37,318 nucleotides of DNA from a virus (lineage: Duplodnaviria > Heunggongvirae > Uroviricota > Caudoviricetes). Positions 6,724 through 36,374 of the stretch are shown in pieces. The stretch covers positions 1 through 37,318 of IMG/VR virus record IMGVR_UViG_3300031853_000004; one strand, 5' to 3'. The position numbers and the translations under genes are program-made. The notes beneath the pieces were generated by a model that searched no databases, had not been told where the DNA came from, and worked only from the letters and a program-made list of their open reading frames with translations. The first letter of the stretch is position 1. The number at the start of each line of letters is the position of its first letter.

Positions 6724-7659
6724 TTAAGCTAATCCAAGATATTCTCTTCCCTTTAAATACACACCCTGCCGCAACAATCCAAAGTTAATAGTAGGATTCT
6801 TTAGCTTCTTTAGGATAGTCCAAAGTTCTTCTTTAATTAAATCCTGATACAGAGCATTAAGATAAAATCCCATAGTACCATTATTAACTTCAAACTCTTC
6901 AAGATCAAACTTAACACATGCTTTTTGCTTAGCCTTCTCGCAATCAGCATCAGTTACATACGCATCAATGATATTTTTCTCTACCTCTTGGAGAGGAACT
7001 TTAGTCTTAATGCGGCCCTTGCCTACCTTGGACTCCGCATTAACAATCTTCGCTACTTGATAATGACCCCATTGATTAACATAGTCATAATTCTTAATTA
7101 CGATACCCTCTCCAAGGACATCCTCGGGAAGATTGAAATGATTCTCTACCATCTCTTGGATATCTTTGTAGCTAGGATGATCAACAATGTAAAGTGGAGG
7201 CTCTACCTGATCATATACAGGCTCAAGCCACTCTCTATATTGCGGGTATGGTACGTACTTGCCAGTCTCAGTATCAAATACGTCAATGACCCATAGACCT
7301 GGCTTCTCATATCCCTTAATAGTCCCCGTTTGCTTCGCTCCGTGCAATCCATGCAGCCACTCACCATAAAGAATATATTGAGGATTCTCGGCCAGCCACT
7401 TTCTCAAACCAGCATACTTTCCTTCAGTAGTAAAATACAAAAAGGACTGAGCATTATCACGATTCTCAAAAATCTCCCTCTTCCTAGACCCGCAATGAAT
7501 GTCTCCATCACTGTCTGCCCAGGCGCAAAAATTCGTTCCGTCTAATTTTCCAAATACAAACACCATATTATTTAGAAAAGCATGGATGTTAAACTTAGAA
7601 TCCTCAAACCTTTCAACATGAATAAACGATTTATACTGTGCCATTTTATATCCTTTCAA
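6724..7659 (-). CDS. ATP-dependent RNA ligase, Rnl2-like nucleotidyltransferase
   Basis: Motif I KLDGTN, motif III YGEW, motif IV EGIVIK, motif V AKIVNAE. Confidence 0.8.
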   Translation of the reverse strand: MKGYKMAQYKSFIHVERFEDSKFNIHAFLNNMVFVFGKLDGTNFCAWADSDGDIHCGSRKREIFENRDNAQSFLYFTTEGKYAGLRKWLAENPQYILYGEWLHGLHGAKQTGTIKGYEKPGLWVIDVFDTETGKYVPYPQYREWLEPVYDQVEPPLYIVDHPSYKDIQEMVENHFNLPEDVLGEGIVIKNYDYVNQWGHYQVAKIVNAESKVGKGRIKTKVPLQEVEKNIIDAYVTDADCEKAKQKACVKFDLEEFEVNNGTMGFYLNALYQDLIKEELWTILKKLKNPTINFGLLRQGVYLKGREYLGLA

Positions 7660-12569: not shown

Positions 12570-12776
12570 CTAAGCTCCTGTAATAACAAAATCAATGGAA
12601 GGATTTTCAGTACAATATGCGGCTGCTACAAAAAAAGTAGAAAAAGCAGGACCAACAATTATATTAGCGTCCCAATTATTACTAATTACAACAAGCCATT
12701 CGATATCTTCATCATACCTAAAATCCATAAGATTTGCGGGAAAAAGCTTGTAGTTCTTTTCCATATTTTTCTCCAA
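12570..12776 (-). CDS. Hypothetical protein
   Basis: Track ORF downstream of the promoter at 12804-12832. Confidence 0.6.
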   Translation of the reverse strand: MEKNMEKNYKLFPANLMDFRYDEDIEWLVVISNNWDANIIVGPAFSTFFVAAAYCTENPSIDFVITGA

Positions 12777-15949: not shown

Positions 15950-16957
15950 TTAATGCGCTTGACGGTCAGCTTCTCCAAGCAATTCTAAACAATACAAATC
16001 ATAATTATTAAATAATTTCTTTTCACGTTTAGCGCACTTACCATCAGGATACTGGCGCCAAGTAAAACTAACCCGCATATGAAAATTAACATAAGTTGCC
16101 ATTTTTACAAAAACTTCTTCAGTAATATACGTTTCTATATCGTAAGAAGATAAAAAAGGAAATTCTGAAAGAATTAAATAGGCTCCAGCATTCTCATGCC
16201 CATAATAATGAGCAGTTTCAGTAGGACGTCCTTTTCTATCATGATAATCTTTAGTGATCAATTTGCCAATATCATGATATTTAGCAGCTTCAAATAAAGG
16301 CTTACATCCCCAAAAATCGTTTTCTGGTACAGAAGGATTATAATGCTTAACAACATATTTGTAAGTATTTTGCATATGCTGCCCAAGAGTCATGGTATGA
16401 AATGGATTATCTTGATTAAAAGAATCAAGTATATCAAAATTAACAGATGCATATTCTTTTTTAATCCAAAAACTTCCTGCTTTTATTGTGCAATAAGCTT
16501 CTTTATTAGGATAAAAATAATAAATCCCATCAAATCCTTCTTTTTCAAGAGGAATCTGAAAACTTCTTACCATGTTATCAATTACTTTTTCAGGCACACA
16601 ACCAAACTCATCACGACGAGAATTCTGCTCTTTACAAAGCTTAATAGGAACTATAATCACATCAGCTTCATAAAAAACATTAGGAAACTTAGCACGTAGT
16701 TCAGTAAGTAAATTCATACGAAACTTTCTTTGAATATTAGTTGCGTTAAATACAACATTTTTTCCAAGAGAAAGAGAATCTATAATCATATCGTGAGCAA
16801 TTTGAAAAACATCTTCTTTAGTACCTTGCTTATATCCATTATCCTTGCGGATTTGGTCAGTAGAAACTATTACATGATTTTTAAAGCTATCATCATGCTC
16901 TATAAAATAATCTTTGCCACTTCCAGGCAAACCAATCATCATTACGAATTCTTGCAT
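15950..16957 (-). CDS. Polynucleotide-kinase-like P-loop (AAA_33) fused to HD phosphohydrolase
   Basis: GLPGSGKD, STDQIR and NATN in the N-terminal half; HTMTLGQH, YHDIGK and GHEN in the HD domain. Confidence 0.88.
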   Translation of the reverse strand: MQEFVMMIGLPGSGKDYFIEHDDSFKNHVIVSTDQIRKDNGYKQGTKEDVFQIAHDMIIDSLSLGKNVVFNATNIQRKFRMNLLTELRAKFPNVFYEADVIIVPIKLCKEQNSRRDEFGCVPEKVIDNMVRSFQIPLEKEGFDGIYYFYPNKEAYCTIKAGSFWIKKEYASVNFDILDSFNQDNPFHTMTLGQHMQNTYKYVVKHYNPSVPENDFWGCKPLFEAAKYHDIGKLITKDYHDRKGRPTETAHYYGHENAGAYLILSEFPFLSSYDIETYITEEVFVKMATYVNFHMRVSFTWRQYPDGKCAKREKKLFNNYDLYCLELLGEADRQAH

Positions 16958-17053
16958 ATTTTCTCCCTTCAATCTATATATATTATACCATATATAGAAG
17001 AAGTTGTCAATAAAAAAATACCTAAAACCTCAAAAAGATTTTAGGTATTTTAC

Positions 17054-22981: not shown

Positions 22982-24019
22982 TTACGCCCATTTTCCATCA
23001 TTTAGGGAACGTTGTAAAGCACAACAGGTATTAAAACCAAAATATCCATCTACTGCTAGACCATAATCAAATCTATTAAGATACTCTTGCATTTTCTTAA
23101 TAGTTTGCGGACCAATGATGCCGTCTACATAAGCACCAATTTGCTCTTGCATAGCTCTAACCATTGGTGAACCAGACTCATCCCATCTTACAGTAGAGAA
23201 ACGTTCCATATACTCTTCATTTGCACTATCCTGACCGTCAATCCAACCATCAACATAAGTGCCGAGCTGTCTCTGTAATTCAGAAATAGTTAGCTCACCT
23301 GCCCAACCATCAATATTAAGTTCCATATCGCCAGGCTCTTGTGGAGTAACCACTGGTTGTTCAGGAGTTCCATTTGGTGAAGTGTTGTTCTTATATCCTT
23401 CCTTAATTCTAGTAGGATAATCAATTTGGCATCAATTACAATCTACATATCCTGAAACATCATCATACACAACGTCACCATCTGAAAGTCTTATACCGCC
23501 TTGCTGCCATAAGCCAGCATCATCGCCATAAGAAGGCCAATTTCTACCTCAAGCTGCGATTCAGTCTGCATATGGAAGTAACTCATCACTATATACGTTA
23601 TTGTTTCAGGTTGAACCATTTACATAGATACCTGAATAAAATCCATTATTATTTAATGTGTCACAGAAAGTCTTAATAACATCTGTAAGAGCTCTGCGAG
23701 AAAGAGCGTATTGGCGTGGATCTTCAACGTCCATGTATACGGGAAGATCGAAAGCTTTACCAGTTAAAAGACCACCAAAGTGTTCTGCATCTTTTCTAGC
23801 TTCTGAAGTACTTGTAGTAACAGTGTAATAATATGCTCCAATATGGAGTCCTGCGGCTTTGGCGTTGCGGTAATGTGTTTCAAAGGAAGAATCTTTATAT
23901 CTTCCACCTTCATTCCCGCCAGCTTTGATAATTACACCCCATAGACCACGCTTATTTTTTCAAGCATTAAAATCTACGTTAGCGTCTCATCGAGAGACAT
24001 CAATGACTAGCTCACGCAT
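22982..24019 (-). CDS. GH25 muramidase endolysin with peptidoglycan-binding repeats, 345 aa (needs TGA=Trp)
   Basis: IDVSR*D, IIKAGG, IGAYYY, YMDVE, D*IAA*, LWQ and VDCN* motifs; six TGAs at 23987, 23960, 23606, 23561, 23549 and 23432; AAAGGAG RBS. Confidence 0.93.
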
Positions 24020-26058: not shown

Positions 26059-26196
26059 TAAGAGGAAATAATTAGAATAGTGTAAAATACGCGCTCTACC
26101 CTTGAGCTACAAAAACGTACTGTGCTTTTGGCAAGATTCGAACTTGCAATAACGTGTCTCCTAGACATGAAGTAACTATTCTATCCATCACTCTTA
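26059..26196 (-). ncRNA. Y-RNA-like hairpin RNA 1 carrying a circularly permuted tRNA-like domain (YrlA-like topology)
   Basis: End-paired scaffold encloses, in order, T arm GCAAG-TTCGAAT-CTTGC, acceptor 3' strand CAAAAGC, short loop, acceptor 5' strand GTTTTTG and D arm GCTC-AAGGGTA-GAGC. Confidence 0.75.
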
Positions 26197-27552: not shown

Positions 27553-27582
27553 TTTTATTTATTCTTTAAAAAGAGACTATTA

Positions 27583-28218
27583 AAAAGTTTCTTGCGACCT
27601 TCGCCGTACTCTTTTATTGTGTGTTAATTTTCAGTCACGTAGGAGATAAAAGTGAGCCATACGGAGCGACCGCATAACTTTTTACCCCAGTCTAAAGCTA
27701 TAAAATACACAGGTGTATTTTATATTCTCCATTGAAGGATAACTTTATTACCAAATCTACGCCAGGATTGATTACAAACTGGAACTTTCACCCATCATTC
27801 ACAAAATAATATCATATCTTCAAATGATCTTCCGTATGCCATTTTACCGCAGGCTTCGCGTTTTTTCATTCCAGCTTTGGGCTACTTGTACATTGACCTC
27901 GTCTTATTGATATATTACTATATCTTAACTGGAAACTCTCTTATTGGTATTTCCAACGTTCCTGCTTTGGGCACCACCCCGCACAGACGTTTGGATTCAA
28001 ATCCCGCTGGGACGCCTATTATGAGAGCGACGAGACACTACCTTTTAATCGCACAATAATCGAGCGCTACCTACATTTCGTTGAAATCATTTAATTTCTT
28101 CTTACTATTGGATTACTCCAACAATAAAAGCCAACCATCTAAAGTATCCCATAGATTTCGACTTACTGAGTAGATACGCATGACCGCATGATATTGCGAA
28201 TACACATGCTTCAAAAAC
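27583..28218 (-). ncRNA. Large structured ncRNA of about 630 nt, ROOL-like
   Basis: No long minus-strand ORF, higher GC and many hairpins. 5' TTGAAG..CAATATCATGCGGT..GTAAGTCG, central AAGTAGCCCAAAG and 3' GGTCGCTCC..GGCTCA..GAGTACGGCGAAGGT resemble ROOL as I recall it. Size and tRNA-cluster location fit. Needs a covariance-model search. Confidence 0.62.
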
Positions 28219-28250
28219 TTTTTAATATTCTCTTTTCAAAGAATATTTAA

Positions 28251-28329
28251 GATAAGAGAAATACTAAAGAAAGAAAAATCCTACACCGTAACCTATGAAT
28301 TGAAGTATCTTTCTTTCAATCATCTTATC
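28251..28329 (-). ncRNA. Y-RNA-like hairpin RNA 2 (minimal)
   Basis: GATAAGA-TGATTG-AAAGAAAGA-TACTTCA ... TTCTTTCTTT-AGTA-TTTC-TCTTATC. Confidence 0.7.
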
Positions 28330-28362
28330 AAGAATATATTTCTCACCAAATATATTCTTTTT
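28330..28362. terminator. AT-rich hairpin between hairpin RNAs 3 and 2 (terminator or processing site)
   Basis: AAGAATATATT / AATATATTCTT inverted repeat followed by T's on the plus strand. Confidence 0.4.
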
Positions 28363-28369
28363 GTACACA

Positions 28370-28498
28370 TTTAGAAAGGAAATACTAGAAATAGTACAAT
28401 ACGCTTCTGCTCGTGAAGTGAAGGAAGTGAGCTTTAATTTAAATATTTTTTAAATACTTTTATCATTTGAAGTAACTATTTCTCAATCACTTTCTAAA
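28370..28498 (-). ncRNA. Y-RNA-like hairpin RNA 3
   Basis: TTTAGAAAG-TGATTG-AGAAATAGT-TACTTCA ... ACTATTTCT-AGTA-TTTC-CTTTCTAAA; starts just downstream of a consensus promoter. Confidence 0.75.
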
Positions 28499-29110: not shown

Positions 29111-29217
29111 ATGCGGAAATATTTAAAATAGTTGTTACTGTTAGAATCGAACTAACTTTATTTGATTAAGAGTCAAAGGCTTTCCATAAGCGAAGTAACT
29201 ATTTTACCATCACGCAT
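29111..29217 (-). ncRNA. Y-RNA-like hairpin RNA 4 carrying a tRNA-Lys(CUU)-like cloverleaf
   Basis: ATGCG-TGATGG-TAAAATAGT-TACTTC, D-like GCTT-ATGGA-AAGC, anticodon arm TTTGA-CTCTTAA-TCAAA, T arm GTTAG-TTCGATT-CTAAC, then AGTAACA-ACTATTTTA-AATA-TTTC-CGCAT. Confidence 0.78.
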
Positions 29218-29234
29218 TATTTTCGTTTAATAAT

Positions 29235-29335
29235 GAAAAGGAAACAATAAAGATAGTATATTTTACGAATAGCAGGTTTTGGCGCTATTTTCTTTTAAAA
29301 TAATCCTTGAAATAACTATCTTTCCATCACTTTTC
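29235..29335 (-). ncRNA. Y-RNA-like hairpin RNA 5
   Basis: GAAAAG-TGATGG-AAAGATAGT-TATTTCA ... ACTATCTTT-ATTG-TTTC-CTTTTC. Confidence 0.72.
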
Positions 29336-29518: not shown

Positions 29519-30536
29519 AAGAGTTGGTACCGCTTTTTTGGCAAGCGGTCAGCCATTTAAGTTAGAACATTGGAACCACCTTCTTTAATAGAAAACTTTA
29601 AGTTTATCGTATAACTTAAAAGCGCAATGGAACCATCTCCTTTCTCAAGAATAGTTCTAACATAATTAATAAAACGTCCCTAGCAGAGCAAGTTACTAAG
29701 GCTCTGACACCGCATTTTCGGGTATGCGGTGACCATCCGACCTCTTGCGGAGTCACTATGATAGATTAGTTTAAACAGATACGCCACGTGAAGGCTCTAT
29801 CATGTATCCATAACGCAGTAATTTCACCACGCGTAGCTACTATTACCACTCGCACAACTGTTTGTATGCCTACTACCCAGCTGTCCCTTTAATAAAGGTT
29901 AGTGCTAACTAGACTATTTTAACCAATTAAACTACCATGCCAGGCGCGGCACAGGTTGGATTTGAACCAACAGCTTTCCAGTTTATAGTTGATATTTTTA
30001 CCTTTTAAACTATTACTTCGCACAATCGAAGTAAACGGCTTTCGATACCGTATCTCCAACTTTTAATTCCCTTTTGTGGCCTGTGGGATAACAGACTTCG
30101 ACGACCTCTAGACCACGATTTATTTTAAAGTCTGCACGGTATTTGAGGCACTCCGCAGACTACTAATGAAACCGACCTACATCTTAATTTCTATAGCGCG
30201 TAGATACTCCGCGTTCATTCACATCGCTTCCCATCCGCGCATATTGTTTTGTAACGATTCATATTTAATGTCTACATCGTTACAAGCAGACAAAAATTTT
30301 GGCTTTGCAACACTTTTTAGAGGTCCAGCTTCCACTAATTCTATCCTCTAGAGCTTCCGCAAGTGATCAATCTCGCTATTCTGGAACATCCTTTGGCTTT
30401 CACTCTGCCAACCAGATGGGTGTTTGCGCTCTGAAAAGTTTTCGGCCGATTCTTTCCAGTTGCTCTTGCCAATTAAAGCAAAGAGAGATTTTTATCGTCA
30501 GCTATCTAATAAGTAGTAAGGCAATTTTCAACTCTT
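29519..30536 (-). ncRNA. About 1,018-nt end-paired structured ncRNA (GOLLD-like or novel) with embedded tRNA-like parts
   Basis: Starts about 20 nt after a consensus promoter. 5' AAGAGTTG pairs perfectly with 3' CAACTCTT. No credible minus-strand ORF; many hairpins. Confidence 0.55.
29945..30022 (-). pseudogene. Degenerate tRNA-like element inside the 1-kb RNA
   Basis: D-like AGTTTAAAAGGTAAAA and intact T arm GTTGG-TTCAAAT-CCAAC; anticodon and acceptor stems poorly paired. Confidence 0.45.
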
Positions 30537-30557
30537 TTCCCTCTTTTCTTTACTAAT

Positions 30558-30586
30558 ATTATATCATATAATTTTTGGTTTGTCAA
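30558..30586 (-). promoter_or_regulatory. Consensus sigma70 promoter upstream of the 1-kb ncRNA
   Basis: TTGACA (30581-30586), 17 nt, TG-A-TATAAT (30558-30563). Confidence 0.85.
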
Positions 30587-30715
30587 GAAGTTTTTTTGAA
30601 ACTCTAAAATATTTTTTATTAGATTTTAATCACTTCCTTTCTTTTACTTTAATTATATTATACAATATCTTTTTAAGTTTGTCAAGAAAAAATTTTTCTT
30701 GACTTGAAAATTCTT

Positions 30716-30791
30716 TGGAGCGGATGACGGGCAACGATCCCGCAACCTCTGCCTTGGCAAGGCAGCACTCTACCAATTGAACTACATCCGC
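30716..30791 (-). tRNA. tRNA-Gly(GCC)
   Basis: Acceptor GCGGATG/CATCCGC + T + CCA; CTGCC-TTGCCAA-GGCAG; T-loop ATCGTTG. Confidence 0.92.
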
Positions 30792-30794
30792 GTT

Positions 30795-30911
30795 AAAAAA
30801 GAGAGAACAGAATCGAACTGCTCCAGAAGACCAGGCTATAACAGCAACATGTTCTTCTCACTACCAATTGAATTAAATATCAGTGTTATTAATTAATATC
30901 TCTCTCTTTCT
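30795..30911 (-). pseudogene. Distorted tRNA-like sequence
   Basis: D-loop-like TTCAATTGGTAG, T arm GCAG-TTCGATT-CTGT and terminal GAGAGAGA/TCTCTCTT pairing, but no standard anticodon arm. Confidence 0.4.
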
Positions 30912-31014
30912 CTTTATTAATATTATATCATAATTTTTTCTGGTATGCAAGAATTTTTTTCTTTTTACAAAGAAAATTTTTATTAAGTGTTTTACCTTTT
31001 AAACTAACCGCCCG

Positions 31015-31050
31015 CGGAGGACAGTACCGGAGTCGAACCAATATCTCCTA
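31015..31050 (-). other. Isolated tRNA 3'-half-like fragment (T arm plus acceptor strand)
   Basis: ATTGG-TTCGACT-CCGGT-ACTGTCCTCC directly after a promoter, with no D or anticodon arm. Confidence 0.4.
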
Positions 31051-31119
31051 ACCTTTATTAATATTATATCATTAATTTTTATGGAAGTCAAGTATTTTTT
31101 TCCAAGAGAAAAGAAAAAT

Positions 31120-34922: not shown

Positions 34923-36374
34923 TTAACCGAAGCTAATGTTATTTATAAGATTGACAATGTTCTCTTTTCCATTTACTAAATCAATATATTTAAATATTGA
35001 ATCATTTAAAGAAGTTAAGAACATAAAATTATCAGATGGAGGTTCGATCTGACCATCATAATTTGCTAAATCAAAACTGTATGTCATGATATTGCCATAT
35101 CTTTTATTCCAATTATAAATTGAATCAGTTCTAGATCCGGCATAATAGCTATTATAATTAGTCCAAAAAATTTGCATATCACTTATAACAAAAATTCTAT
35201 CATAAGTATCTTTCATTATTTCAATTGCAGATTGTATGTTAGTACCCCATCCACAATTACTATTACTACACATAGCATCAATGATACTAAAAGGATTATT
35301 TAATCTAGAAAAATTATTAAATCTTTTAGCGTCGGTACCAAATTTAATAAAATCTATATTTGAACCATTTAAGAATAACGCAGTCGCGAAACAAGCTCCA
35401 ATTTCTTTTAAAGTTATATTACTATTTGAACTAATATAATTTTCCATAGAACCAGATACATCAAGTACAATAGCATTAATACCATCAAATTTAGGGATAT
35501 TATAAGTTGCAATTCCAAAAGCTCTTCCAAGAGCCTCCTCAATTAAAAGATTATTAATCTTTAAATTTTTATGTGCAGTATAAATTCGATATGGAAAAAC
35601 TAATGATTTACGAATTTTATTTTCATTAATAAGTTGAGGATAAAGATATTCCCCAATCCATTCATTGTCAATATTTGGATTATCAAGAATATTATTTAAA
35701 TTGCGGAGAAGCGCCATGTATCCAAGTTTACCTTCTTCAACCATTTCCTTCCAGGTTGCTTGACGTGATTCCTTAGACTGTTTCTTTGCAACACTAACCT
35801 CCCAAGTATCTGGAGCTTTAAGAAGGTTATTCTTAAAATCATTAATAACTTTTGAATTTGCATGTGTAAGATTAATTAAATCATACATATTATACGTATG
35901 ACCAATCATTTTATATTTAGTAATTTCATACTGTCCAAGAGAAGAAAGATAATTAGCAGAACCTTTAATTAAAGCATGAGATCTCTTTCCATCAAGATAT
36001 TTAACAGCACCAAAGATTTCTGAAACATCATCAGGACGCCGCATAAAACTACGATAAAATTCTCTTTTCTCTTGGAAAGATTTATCATTAAGCCATGCGG
36101 CGATTAGTTGTGAGACAGACCGCATTCCAAGTTCATTACGAGCAAAAATTGCGGCTTTGCCTACAAATGCATAATCATATTGGTCAGCAACAGCTTCTGT
36201 CAGATTTAAAAGTCTATCAATTTGATCTGAAGACTTTTCGTAATATTGATTTTCTAAGAAAGATGAAAAAAGCATATTAAACCAAGCTTCTACAGTATTT
36301 CTTTTATAAAGGATAGTTCCTTCATATGATTGCACTCGTTCTTGAACTTTCTTTTCATTAAACTTTGCCATCAC
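34923..36374 (-). CDS. rsr: Ro60 / TROVE-vWA RNA-binding protein (Rsr-like)
   Basis: TROVE features (FLENQYYE, AIFARNELGMRS, RRPDD, ITKY, LTH, PDTWE, GYMALLRNL, PYR) followed by a vWA MIDAS LDVSGSM, T and FVISDMQ. Confidence 0.9.
   Translation of the reverse strand: MMAKFNEKKVQERVQSYEGTILYKRNTVEAWFNMLFSSFLENQYYEKSSDQIDRLLNLTEAVADQYDYAFVGKAAIFARNELGMRSVSQLIAAWLNDKSFQEKREFYRSFMRRPDDVSEIFGAVKYLDGKRSHALIKGSANYLSSLGQYEITKYKMIGHTYNMYDLINLTHANSKVINDFKNNLLKAPDTWEVSVAKKQSKESRQATWKEMVEEGKLGYMALLRNLNNILDNPNIDNEWIGEYLYPQLINENKIRKSLVFPYRIYTAHKNLKINNLLIEEALGRAFGIATYNIPKFDGINAIVLDVSGSMENYISSNSNITLKEIGACFATALFLNGSNIDFIKFGTDAKRFNNFSRLNNPFSIIDAMCSNSNCGWGTNIQSAIEIMKDTYDRIFVISDMQIFWTNYNSYYAGSRTDSIYNWNKRYGNIMTYSFDLANYDGQIEPPSDNFMFLTSLNDSIFKYIDLVNGKENIVNLINNISFG

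Follow-up and report, generated by a model that had tools for sequence, protein, structure and literature searches.

A region of about 1 kb in a rumen phage (positions 29,519 to 30,536, minus strand) most probably encodes a cassette of RNA modules that are transcribed together and each fold independently. The cassette is placed in an island of tRNAs and a ROOL RNA; the probability of this reading is roughly 0.7. The window, i.e., the whole stretch of DNA that was analysed (37,318 nucleotides), makes up the first 37 kb of a phage record 143.5 kb long, and the runs that hold it are mostly from cattle and sheep gut samples. A preliminary description had proposed one giant RNA closed by a terminal helix, either a variant of GOLLD or a new class. 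The region is real and under selection, and it is an array of modules and no GOLLD-like giant. In about 20 related rumen-phage loci, which represent roughly 8-10 lineages and so are not 20 independent samples, the cassette consists of about 13 autonomously folding modules of 35-190 nt.

In this phage TGA encodes tryptophan: the coding density is 0.71 in genetic code 4 versus 0.48 in code 11, and six TGA codons are read through in a GH25 endolysin with a peptidoglycan-binding domain. The TGA reading is an observation on the whole genome, placed at window positions 22982-24019. The phage host possesses peptidoglycan. ARAGORN found no tRNA with a TCA anticodon in the phage genome; several relatives have a 96-nt TCA tRNA, labelled SeC, and a homologous ORF has TGG in L012 and TGA in L014.

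The cassette region sits in a non-coding island with tRNAs, the ROOL RNA and the Ro60 gene. The preliminary description was right that this is a structured, promoter-driven phage region that contains tRNA-like modules and adjoins ROOL. Its consensus promoter is a perfect sigma70 match, and the sense strand is indeed non-coding, with no ORF of at least 80 aa in code 11 and none longer than 52 aa in code 4 (29519-30536). The features are as follows:

30558-30586, minus strand: sigma70-type promoter TTGACA-17-TG-TATAAT, 12/12 consensus with TG
30474-30551, minus strand: module Z, optional leader of about 75 nt, closed by a stem of its own and containing the 5' arm of the proposed terminal helix; restricted to the window and L062
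30301-30470, minus strand: module A, 170-nt multi-helix RNA with a three-way junction, a multiloop and a 5-bp pseudoknot
30246-30291, minus strand: module B, 46-nt H-type pseudoknot; 11 copies, both-side changes in 7/9 pairs of the second helix
30165-30243, minus strand: module C, 79-nt hairpin with a probable 6-bp loop-to-3' pseudoknot; 10 copies
30122-30163, minus strand: module D, 42-nt hairpin with an A-rich tail; 11 copies, 75/77 cells paired, z -3.2
30064-30121, minus strand: module E, 58-nt hairpin with a possible CCC/GGG pseudoknot; 10 copies, little covariation
29987-30061, minus strand: module F, circularly permuted tRNA-like domain without anticodon loop or CCA end; 13 copies
29908-29982, minus strand: module G, second permuted tRNA-like domain; 3 copies
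29810-29907, minus strand: module H, unclassified multi-helix RNA of about 98 nt; 8 copies, main helices with 48/48 and 32/32 cells paired
29759-29809, minus strand: module I, minimal HDV-like (theta) ribozyme that is predicted to cut just 5' of G29809; catalytic C at 29769
29671-29757, minus strand: module J, two hairpins and an H-type pseudoknot; 3 copies, both-side changes in 3/7 pairs of the second hairpin
29561-29662, minus strand: module K, rod of about 100 nt with an 8-bp closing stem; 10 copies, stem with 56/56 cells paired
29529-29554, minus strand: module Lk, small H-type pseudoknot; 6 copies with every cell paired and a both-side change in each helix
29381-29503, minus strand: conserved 40-aa basic ORF closing the cassette; 21 protein hits
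30982-31051, minus strand: third permuted tRNA-like RNA, free-standing, with its own promoter at 31091-31063
27575-28233, minus strand: ROOL RNA, a separate neighbour (284 bits)
34923-36374, same strand as the cassette: Ro60 (TROVE plus VWA)

Transcription would start near 30551. A second promoter of the same kind lies at 30685-30657 on the minus strand, and relatives have an equivalent promoter ahead of module A. Between the tandem promoters there is a short hairpin RNA (30587-30650) with a TGATT motif like that of the phage's Y-like scaffold; it is retained in relatives with a changed stem. No terminator was seen at 29519. Directly past this position come a Shine-Dalgarno-like site and the 40-aa ORF, which has a third-position substitution pattern in one related contig.

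Further structured elements were noted. An unclassified element directly upstream of tRNA-Gly (30795-30920) is closed by purine-rich and pyrimidine-rich ends and has a T-arm-like hairpin inside; positions 30700-30989 are skipped in one related contig. An RT-2 RNA (146 bits) occurs at L009:5702-5924, in a phage with a common 168-aa ORF.

The cassette among related phages

Relatives were collected through the protein hits of the 40-aa ORF (n=21), whose contigs gave loci L012-L031, and pattern scans added L047, L048, L062, L067, L072, L156, L157 and L097. Protein-anchored scans using Ro60 and a 269-aa ORF returned no relatives, an exact 18-mer from module C gave a single chance hit, and when the region and the L097 array were compared with cultured phages by BLAST, only promoter-like matches came up.

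Similarity among these loci is broken into blocks. With the module library mapped on 17 cassettes, the order in the window is Z A B C D E F G H I J K Lk ORF. In L016, A and B precede three other modules, after which come C D E F and, directly, I; L012 is without C, D, E, G and J; in L027, D, E, G, I and J are present and C, F, H and K absent; L023 and L024, from two samples, share the reordered C-F-D-E-G. About 18 further blocks are confined to relatives. The F-to-D joint was also found in an independent RNA-library contig, and the F-to-ribozyme joint in a DNA run. Since the same junctions occur in contigs of unrelated runs, the mosaic is not the artefact of one assembler.

Reordering at module borders was seen in one lineage. 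Apart from this the arrays are largely colinear, and a single RNA carrying optional insertions may therefore also fit. For all module pairs present in at least five phages, no inter-module helix of at least 6 bp with more than one compensatory pair was found; the same search inside A, B and F gives 3-6 such pairs. The comparison thus shows that it is whole modules that are conserved, gained, lost and reordered. This argues against the single RNA of about 1 kb, as does the failure to find a covarying long-range helix, on which the preliminary description had made its own case depend.

Most modules are 85-97% identical from phage to phage, against 66-90% for the ORF relatives of these phages. 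Together with the strong compensatory change, this makes it extremely unlikely that the cassette is a neutral accumulation of selfish or decayed RNA fragments with no common function, even though modules are freely gained and lost and have no known target. Single-sequence folding z-scores, weak in the case of pseudoknotted modules, were not counted as support. Modules C, D, E and K hardly vary, so that little covariation backs their folds: C has one compensatory pair and its structure is mostly a prediction, and D has no both-side changes in its 11 copies. E always stands immediately ahead of F or G. Module K has two copies of a AGRAGRTGGTTCCA-like motif; this motif is Shine-Dalgarno-like and contains GGTTCCA, and its copies lie on opposite strands of one rod. 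Weak hits of K to M23 (21-24 bits) did not hold in its own genome. Searches of the window and relatives with Rfam gathering and E-value thresholds gave no family for A-E, H, J, K or Lk.

The perfect 8-bp inverted repeat on which the terminal helix was founded is present (30536-30529 with 29526-29519). The helix, for its part, is not conserved and the match carries little weight: a terminal match of 8 bp arises in 3-15% of shuffles, and all nine relatives show unrelated end matches of 6-8 bp. The 5' arm, which was found in none of the nine, lies in the optional Z, and the Z of L062 differs in sequence there. A near copy of the 3' arm occurs in one of the nine, L067, which has neither the 5' arm nor module Z. 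A second long-range helix had been proposed as part of another tRNA-like frame. Its motifs are where they were said to be, namely CCTGGCA (29944-29938), a D-loop-like stretch (29935-29916) and TGCTAGG (29685-29679), but the helix is not conserved and its arms have conserved local partners. CCTGGCA belongs to the acceptor stem of G and TGCTAGG pairs locally in the pseudoknot of J; in L027, the only relative with both modules, 4/7 pairs remain. The predicted ribozyme cut at 29809 falls between the arms of both helices.

The GOLLD model (RF02032) has no match at E<=10 in the genome and none in relatives, and there is no conserved 3' domain, which disposes of the GOLLD variant. The other models named in the preliminary description likewise have no match in 29519-30536: ROOL (RF03087) gave no hit there, and tmRNA, RNase P and group I intron models none at E<=10. 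ARAGORN detected no tmRNA, and 29519-30536 has no above-threshold match to any Rfam family. A single GOLLD-like RNA of 1,018 nt with a closing terminal helix would fit the promoter, the length, the perfect arms in this phage and the context, as the region, like GOLLD, is phage-borne and near tRNAs. Given the missing GOLLD match, the unconserved arms, the predicted cut inside and the modular turnover, this reading is hardly credible.

Three studies have RNA-library contigs that match parts of the cassette and bridge the Z-A-B, C-D-E and F-G-H junctions; in run X2, two of them are identical to the window (30054-30242 and 30265-30530). These contigs fit with co-transcription, while transcription itself, its level, strand and ends go beyond what they prove. 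Nothing was concluded from the flanking genes or the 3' part being without RNA-contig cover in run X2.

Two more distant arrays were noted. L097:2420-3540 is divergent and has the same architecture, with A, pseudoknots, a permuted tRNA-like module and a theta-like ribozyme, followed by tRNAs. In a distant 165-kb phage, an apparently analogous array (L010:10510-11060) comprises a promoter, a structured stretch, a theta-like ribozyme and a permuted tRNA-like module without any sequence match to the cassette modules. This phage has ROOL too, and a long tRNA-like gene at 12602-12749.

Module A and the theta ribozyme

Module A opens the cassette in every relative with a 5' end, standing after the optional Z in the window and L062. 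In an alignment of 13 sequences, 96.8% of cells are paired and 20 of the 39 pairs have both-side changes, a count that the kinship of the sequences inflates somewhat. None of 500 shuffles reaches this covariation, and slid controls likewise come nowhere close. The pseudoknot (30385-30381 with 30328-30324) also covaries. A model built from A alone recovers three out-of-sample members with 64-92 bits, and members found after model building have new palindromes in both of the self-complementary loops, loop 1 (30448-30443) and loop 2 (30369-30364).

Loop 2 is self-complementary in 16/16 rows (8.7 expected; 0/5000 shuffles), with five different perfect palindromes (TGATCA, TGGCCA, TAGCTA, TAATTA and TCATGA) or TGGCTA with two G.U pairs. 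Loop 1 has four (CGGCCG, CCATGG, CCGCGG and TCGCGA). Loop 2 is unable to pair in this way within one molecule, so intermolecular pairing is the simple reading; loop 1 could in part form a tetraloop hairpin. Loops that stay self-complementary while their sequence changes indicate kissing-loop oligomers, in which copies of module A would be joined by two kissing loops into dimers, rings or chains. Such retention through several sequence changes is a strong sign of natural oligomers, and module A is ready for cryo-EM.

A paralog, n2, scores 32-42 bits with the A model and has the same helix order. It was seen at L019:197-386 (190 nt), is absent from the window, and occurs in eight cassettes, six of which also have A. 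Most of these share TAGCTA as loop 2, which makes mixed pairing possible. There is no Rfam family for module A, no match between it and manA (RF01745) or EGFOA (RF02955), and none of the 18 matches to its pattern in bacterial genomes is real.

The ribozyme descriptor has one hit in the genome and none in 30 simulated genomes. Module I shows P1, P2, P3, a 7-nt L3, a G for P1.1 and a short P4 in HDV order. In 14 cassettes, P1 and P3 are paired in 72/72 and 36/36 cells, respectively, and P1 covaries. J4/2, with the catalytic C first, is invariant (CTAA in all 12 distinct aligned copies). G1 of the ribozyme follows H, F or G depending on the phage, and the cut site does not lie within 5 nt of a tRNA 3' end. 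Module I is thus placed in the non-tRNA-associated theta subclass, and by analogy with published members (PMC10879173) it would be expected to cleave. Its position after non-tRNA modules points to a possible use for the many theta ribozymes that are not associated with tRNAs, namely to set the 3' end of a non-coding operon.

The dinucleotide AT stands ahead of the cut in 9/10 cassettes, whichever module is upstream (window 29810-29811). It could lengthen P1 by two pairs and hide the P1.1 G, and might tune cleavage. A second theta-like ribozyme (G000:C1 142478-142425, minus strand) starts exactly at the 3' end of tRNA-Leu; it escaped the strict descriptor, probably because of a bulged P2.

The proposed mechanism begins with one transcript from the promoter. 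The ribozyme would set the 3' end of a 5' RNA by cutting before 29809, giving an RNA of about 740 nt that ends in a 2',3'-cyclic phosphate if the chemistry is HDV-like; in relatives, the 5' RNA would be about 670-890 nt counted from the -10 box. The cut would uncouple this RNA from the downstream modules, the ORF and the tRNAs, and oligomers would form via A. The linkers between modules are short and AU-rich, and host nucleases might cut there as well.

An alternative treats the RNA of about 740 nt as a single unit, in which A builds a cage or filament and the downstream modules are covalent cargo, comparable to the tRNAs carried by the variable linker of GOLLD (10.1101/2024.12.08.627333). It is consistent with the leading position of A, with a ribozyme that fixes the 3' end in 10/10 complete cassettes, with RNA-library contigs across module junctions and with two self-pairing loops that permit higher-order assembly. 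However, A has no covarying contact with other modules, the second A-type domain (n2) is internal in some relatives, and the free-standing permuted module has its own promoter; we regard the single unit as unlikely. Similarly low odds are given to the bolder proposal that A is a new two-handed self-assembling RNA class that polymerises the ribozyme-ended transcript into a cage or filament displaying exchangeable tRNA mimics and pseudoknot decoys. If true, it would be an RNA-only anti-defence platform with cassette-like evolution. The preferred reading remains a co-transcribed cassette of independently folding modules.

The permuted tRNA-like modules

Module F folds as a T arm, a loop-closed acceptor stem and a D arm within an anticodon-stem-like helix. 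RNAalifold yields this fold unprompted, and both-side changes occur in 7/23 pairs. In module G, the T, acceptor and closing stems are paired in all cells, with both-side changes in 2/5 pairs of the T stem and 2/7 of the acceptor. The degenerate tRNA seen earlier at 29945-30022 turns out to be a chimera of these tandem permuted mimics, taking its D arm from F and its T arm from G. Read as a linear tRNA, it has 4/7 acceptor and 1/5 anticodon stem pairs, and the model hit is weak and under the cut-off (29947-30019, 27.8 bits). ARAGORN at a lowered threshold accepted both the re-permuted and the linear readings and is non-discriminating here. The free-standing RNA at 30982-31051 has a D arm in common with F.

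A YrlA-like role would make E with F or G a YrlA-type RNA, and the cassette a source of Y RNAs and of partners that serve the phage Ro60 and an RNA repair system. The T-acceptor-D order is that of YrlA, Ro60 is encoded on the same strand, and the window contains genes for an RNA ligase (PF09414) and an AAA_33 kinase-like protein. The Ro-binding motif (GNCGAAN0-1G, sought near the 5' end) has a counterpart in E, GTCGAAG at 30102-30096, 40 nt upstream of the tRNA-like part; so short a motif is expected by chance, and it is broken in L062. F is present without a full E in L012, L026, L048, L067 and L156. The YrlA model scores 18.7 bits at the cassette, against a cut-off of 69 bits for RF02553 and 37.4 bits for the best match of the genome, at 26065-26179. 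Ro60 is about 4.9 kb away, the limit used for YrlA being 4 kb. The phage's Y-like stem does not enclose F and G, and the proposal accounts for just 2-3 of 13 modules. It is quite improbable, and any action of F and G like that of YrlA effector domains is putative, with a YrlA score far below the cut-off.

Members of the phage's Y-like scaffold family lie at 26065-26179, 28251-28498 and 29111-29335, one copy having tRNA-Lys (29131-29200) inside. The RNA ligase and AAA_33 genes (6724-7659 and 15950-16972) are a possible RNA repair pair that might heal ribozyme or nuclease ends. RtcB and DUF3800 genes were searched for and are absent from the phage genome.

Possible roles and known systems

For the cassette of separate modules, a role as decoys against host RNA-recognising defences is a tentative suggestion, with the odds somewhat against it. 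Firstly, tRNA-elbow mimics without an anticodon or CCA end are unable to decode. Secondly, small RNA pseudoknots serve as decoys in phage PhiTE (PMC3475682). Swappable decoys, comprising tRNA-elbow mimics and compact pseudoknots, would occupy host tRNA-cleaving or RNA-sensing defence proteins, and an arms race with the host would drive module turnover. Searches with ToxI and DUF3800 RNA models, which match no module, and for RtcB and DUF3800 genes revealed no decoy target or partner, and no cognate toxin or target was found for the cassette pseudoknots. If the modules are decoys, the array records the RNA-sensing defences used by rumen bacteria.

What was taken for a giant RNA resolves into about ten structured RNA classes that are uncatalogued, have clear borders and are individually small enough to be made and tested. 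Structured-RNA clusters in phage tRNA islands are an already known kind, to which the cassette adds at least one new RNA class. A description of such an RNA array was not found in the literature, in a search that reached few subscription journals.

Short self-assembling phage RNAs have precedent (10.64898/2026.07.01.735769), and the two-loop oligomers of module A resemble other natural RNA assemblies. Like manA and EGFOA, module A is shorter than 200 nt and has kissing-loop potential, and manA is found in phages too (10.64898/2026.07.01.735769). In manA, however, different loops pair, whereas the loops of module A are each self-complementary.

Module I shares with the theta ribozymes of Kienbeck et al. 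2024 (PMC10879173) the nested double pseudoknot, the G.U first pair, the invariant J4/2 C, the minimal P4, the gut-phage setting and a code-4 genome. It differs in what precedes it, which is the non-tRNA module H here and, in five relatives, a permuted tRNA mimic, and not a tRNA 3' end. The cassette pseudoknots are, like Pseudo-ToxI of PhiTE (PMC3475682), small, phage-encoded and potential decoys. Unlike Pseudo-ToxI they are heterologous: B and Lk are not in tandem repeats, and RF02519 (ToxI) has no hit in the region. With YrlA (RF02553; PMC4201824), F and G have in common the permuted T arm, closed acceptor stem and D arm, and Ro60 in the same phage. They differ in having no recognisable Ro-binding helix around them and in being two tandem modules inside an array.

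In setting, the cassette resembles GOLLD (RF02032) and ROOL (RF03087), which are also phage non-coding RNAs of tRNA islands with probable intermolecular loop pairing (10.1101/2024.12.08.627333; PMC5737381) and have variable inserts, tRNA-like parts among them. In contrast to both, the cassette has no model match, conserved 3' domain or long-range covarying helix, and its modules of 35-190 nt turn over singly.
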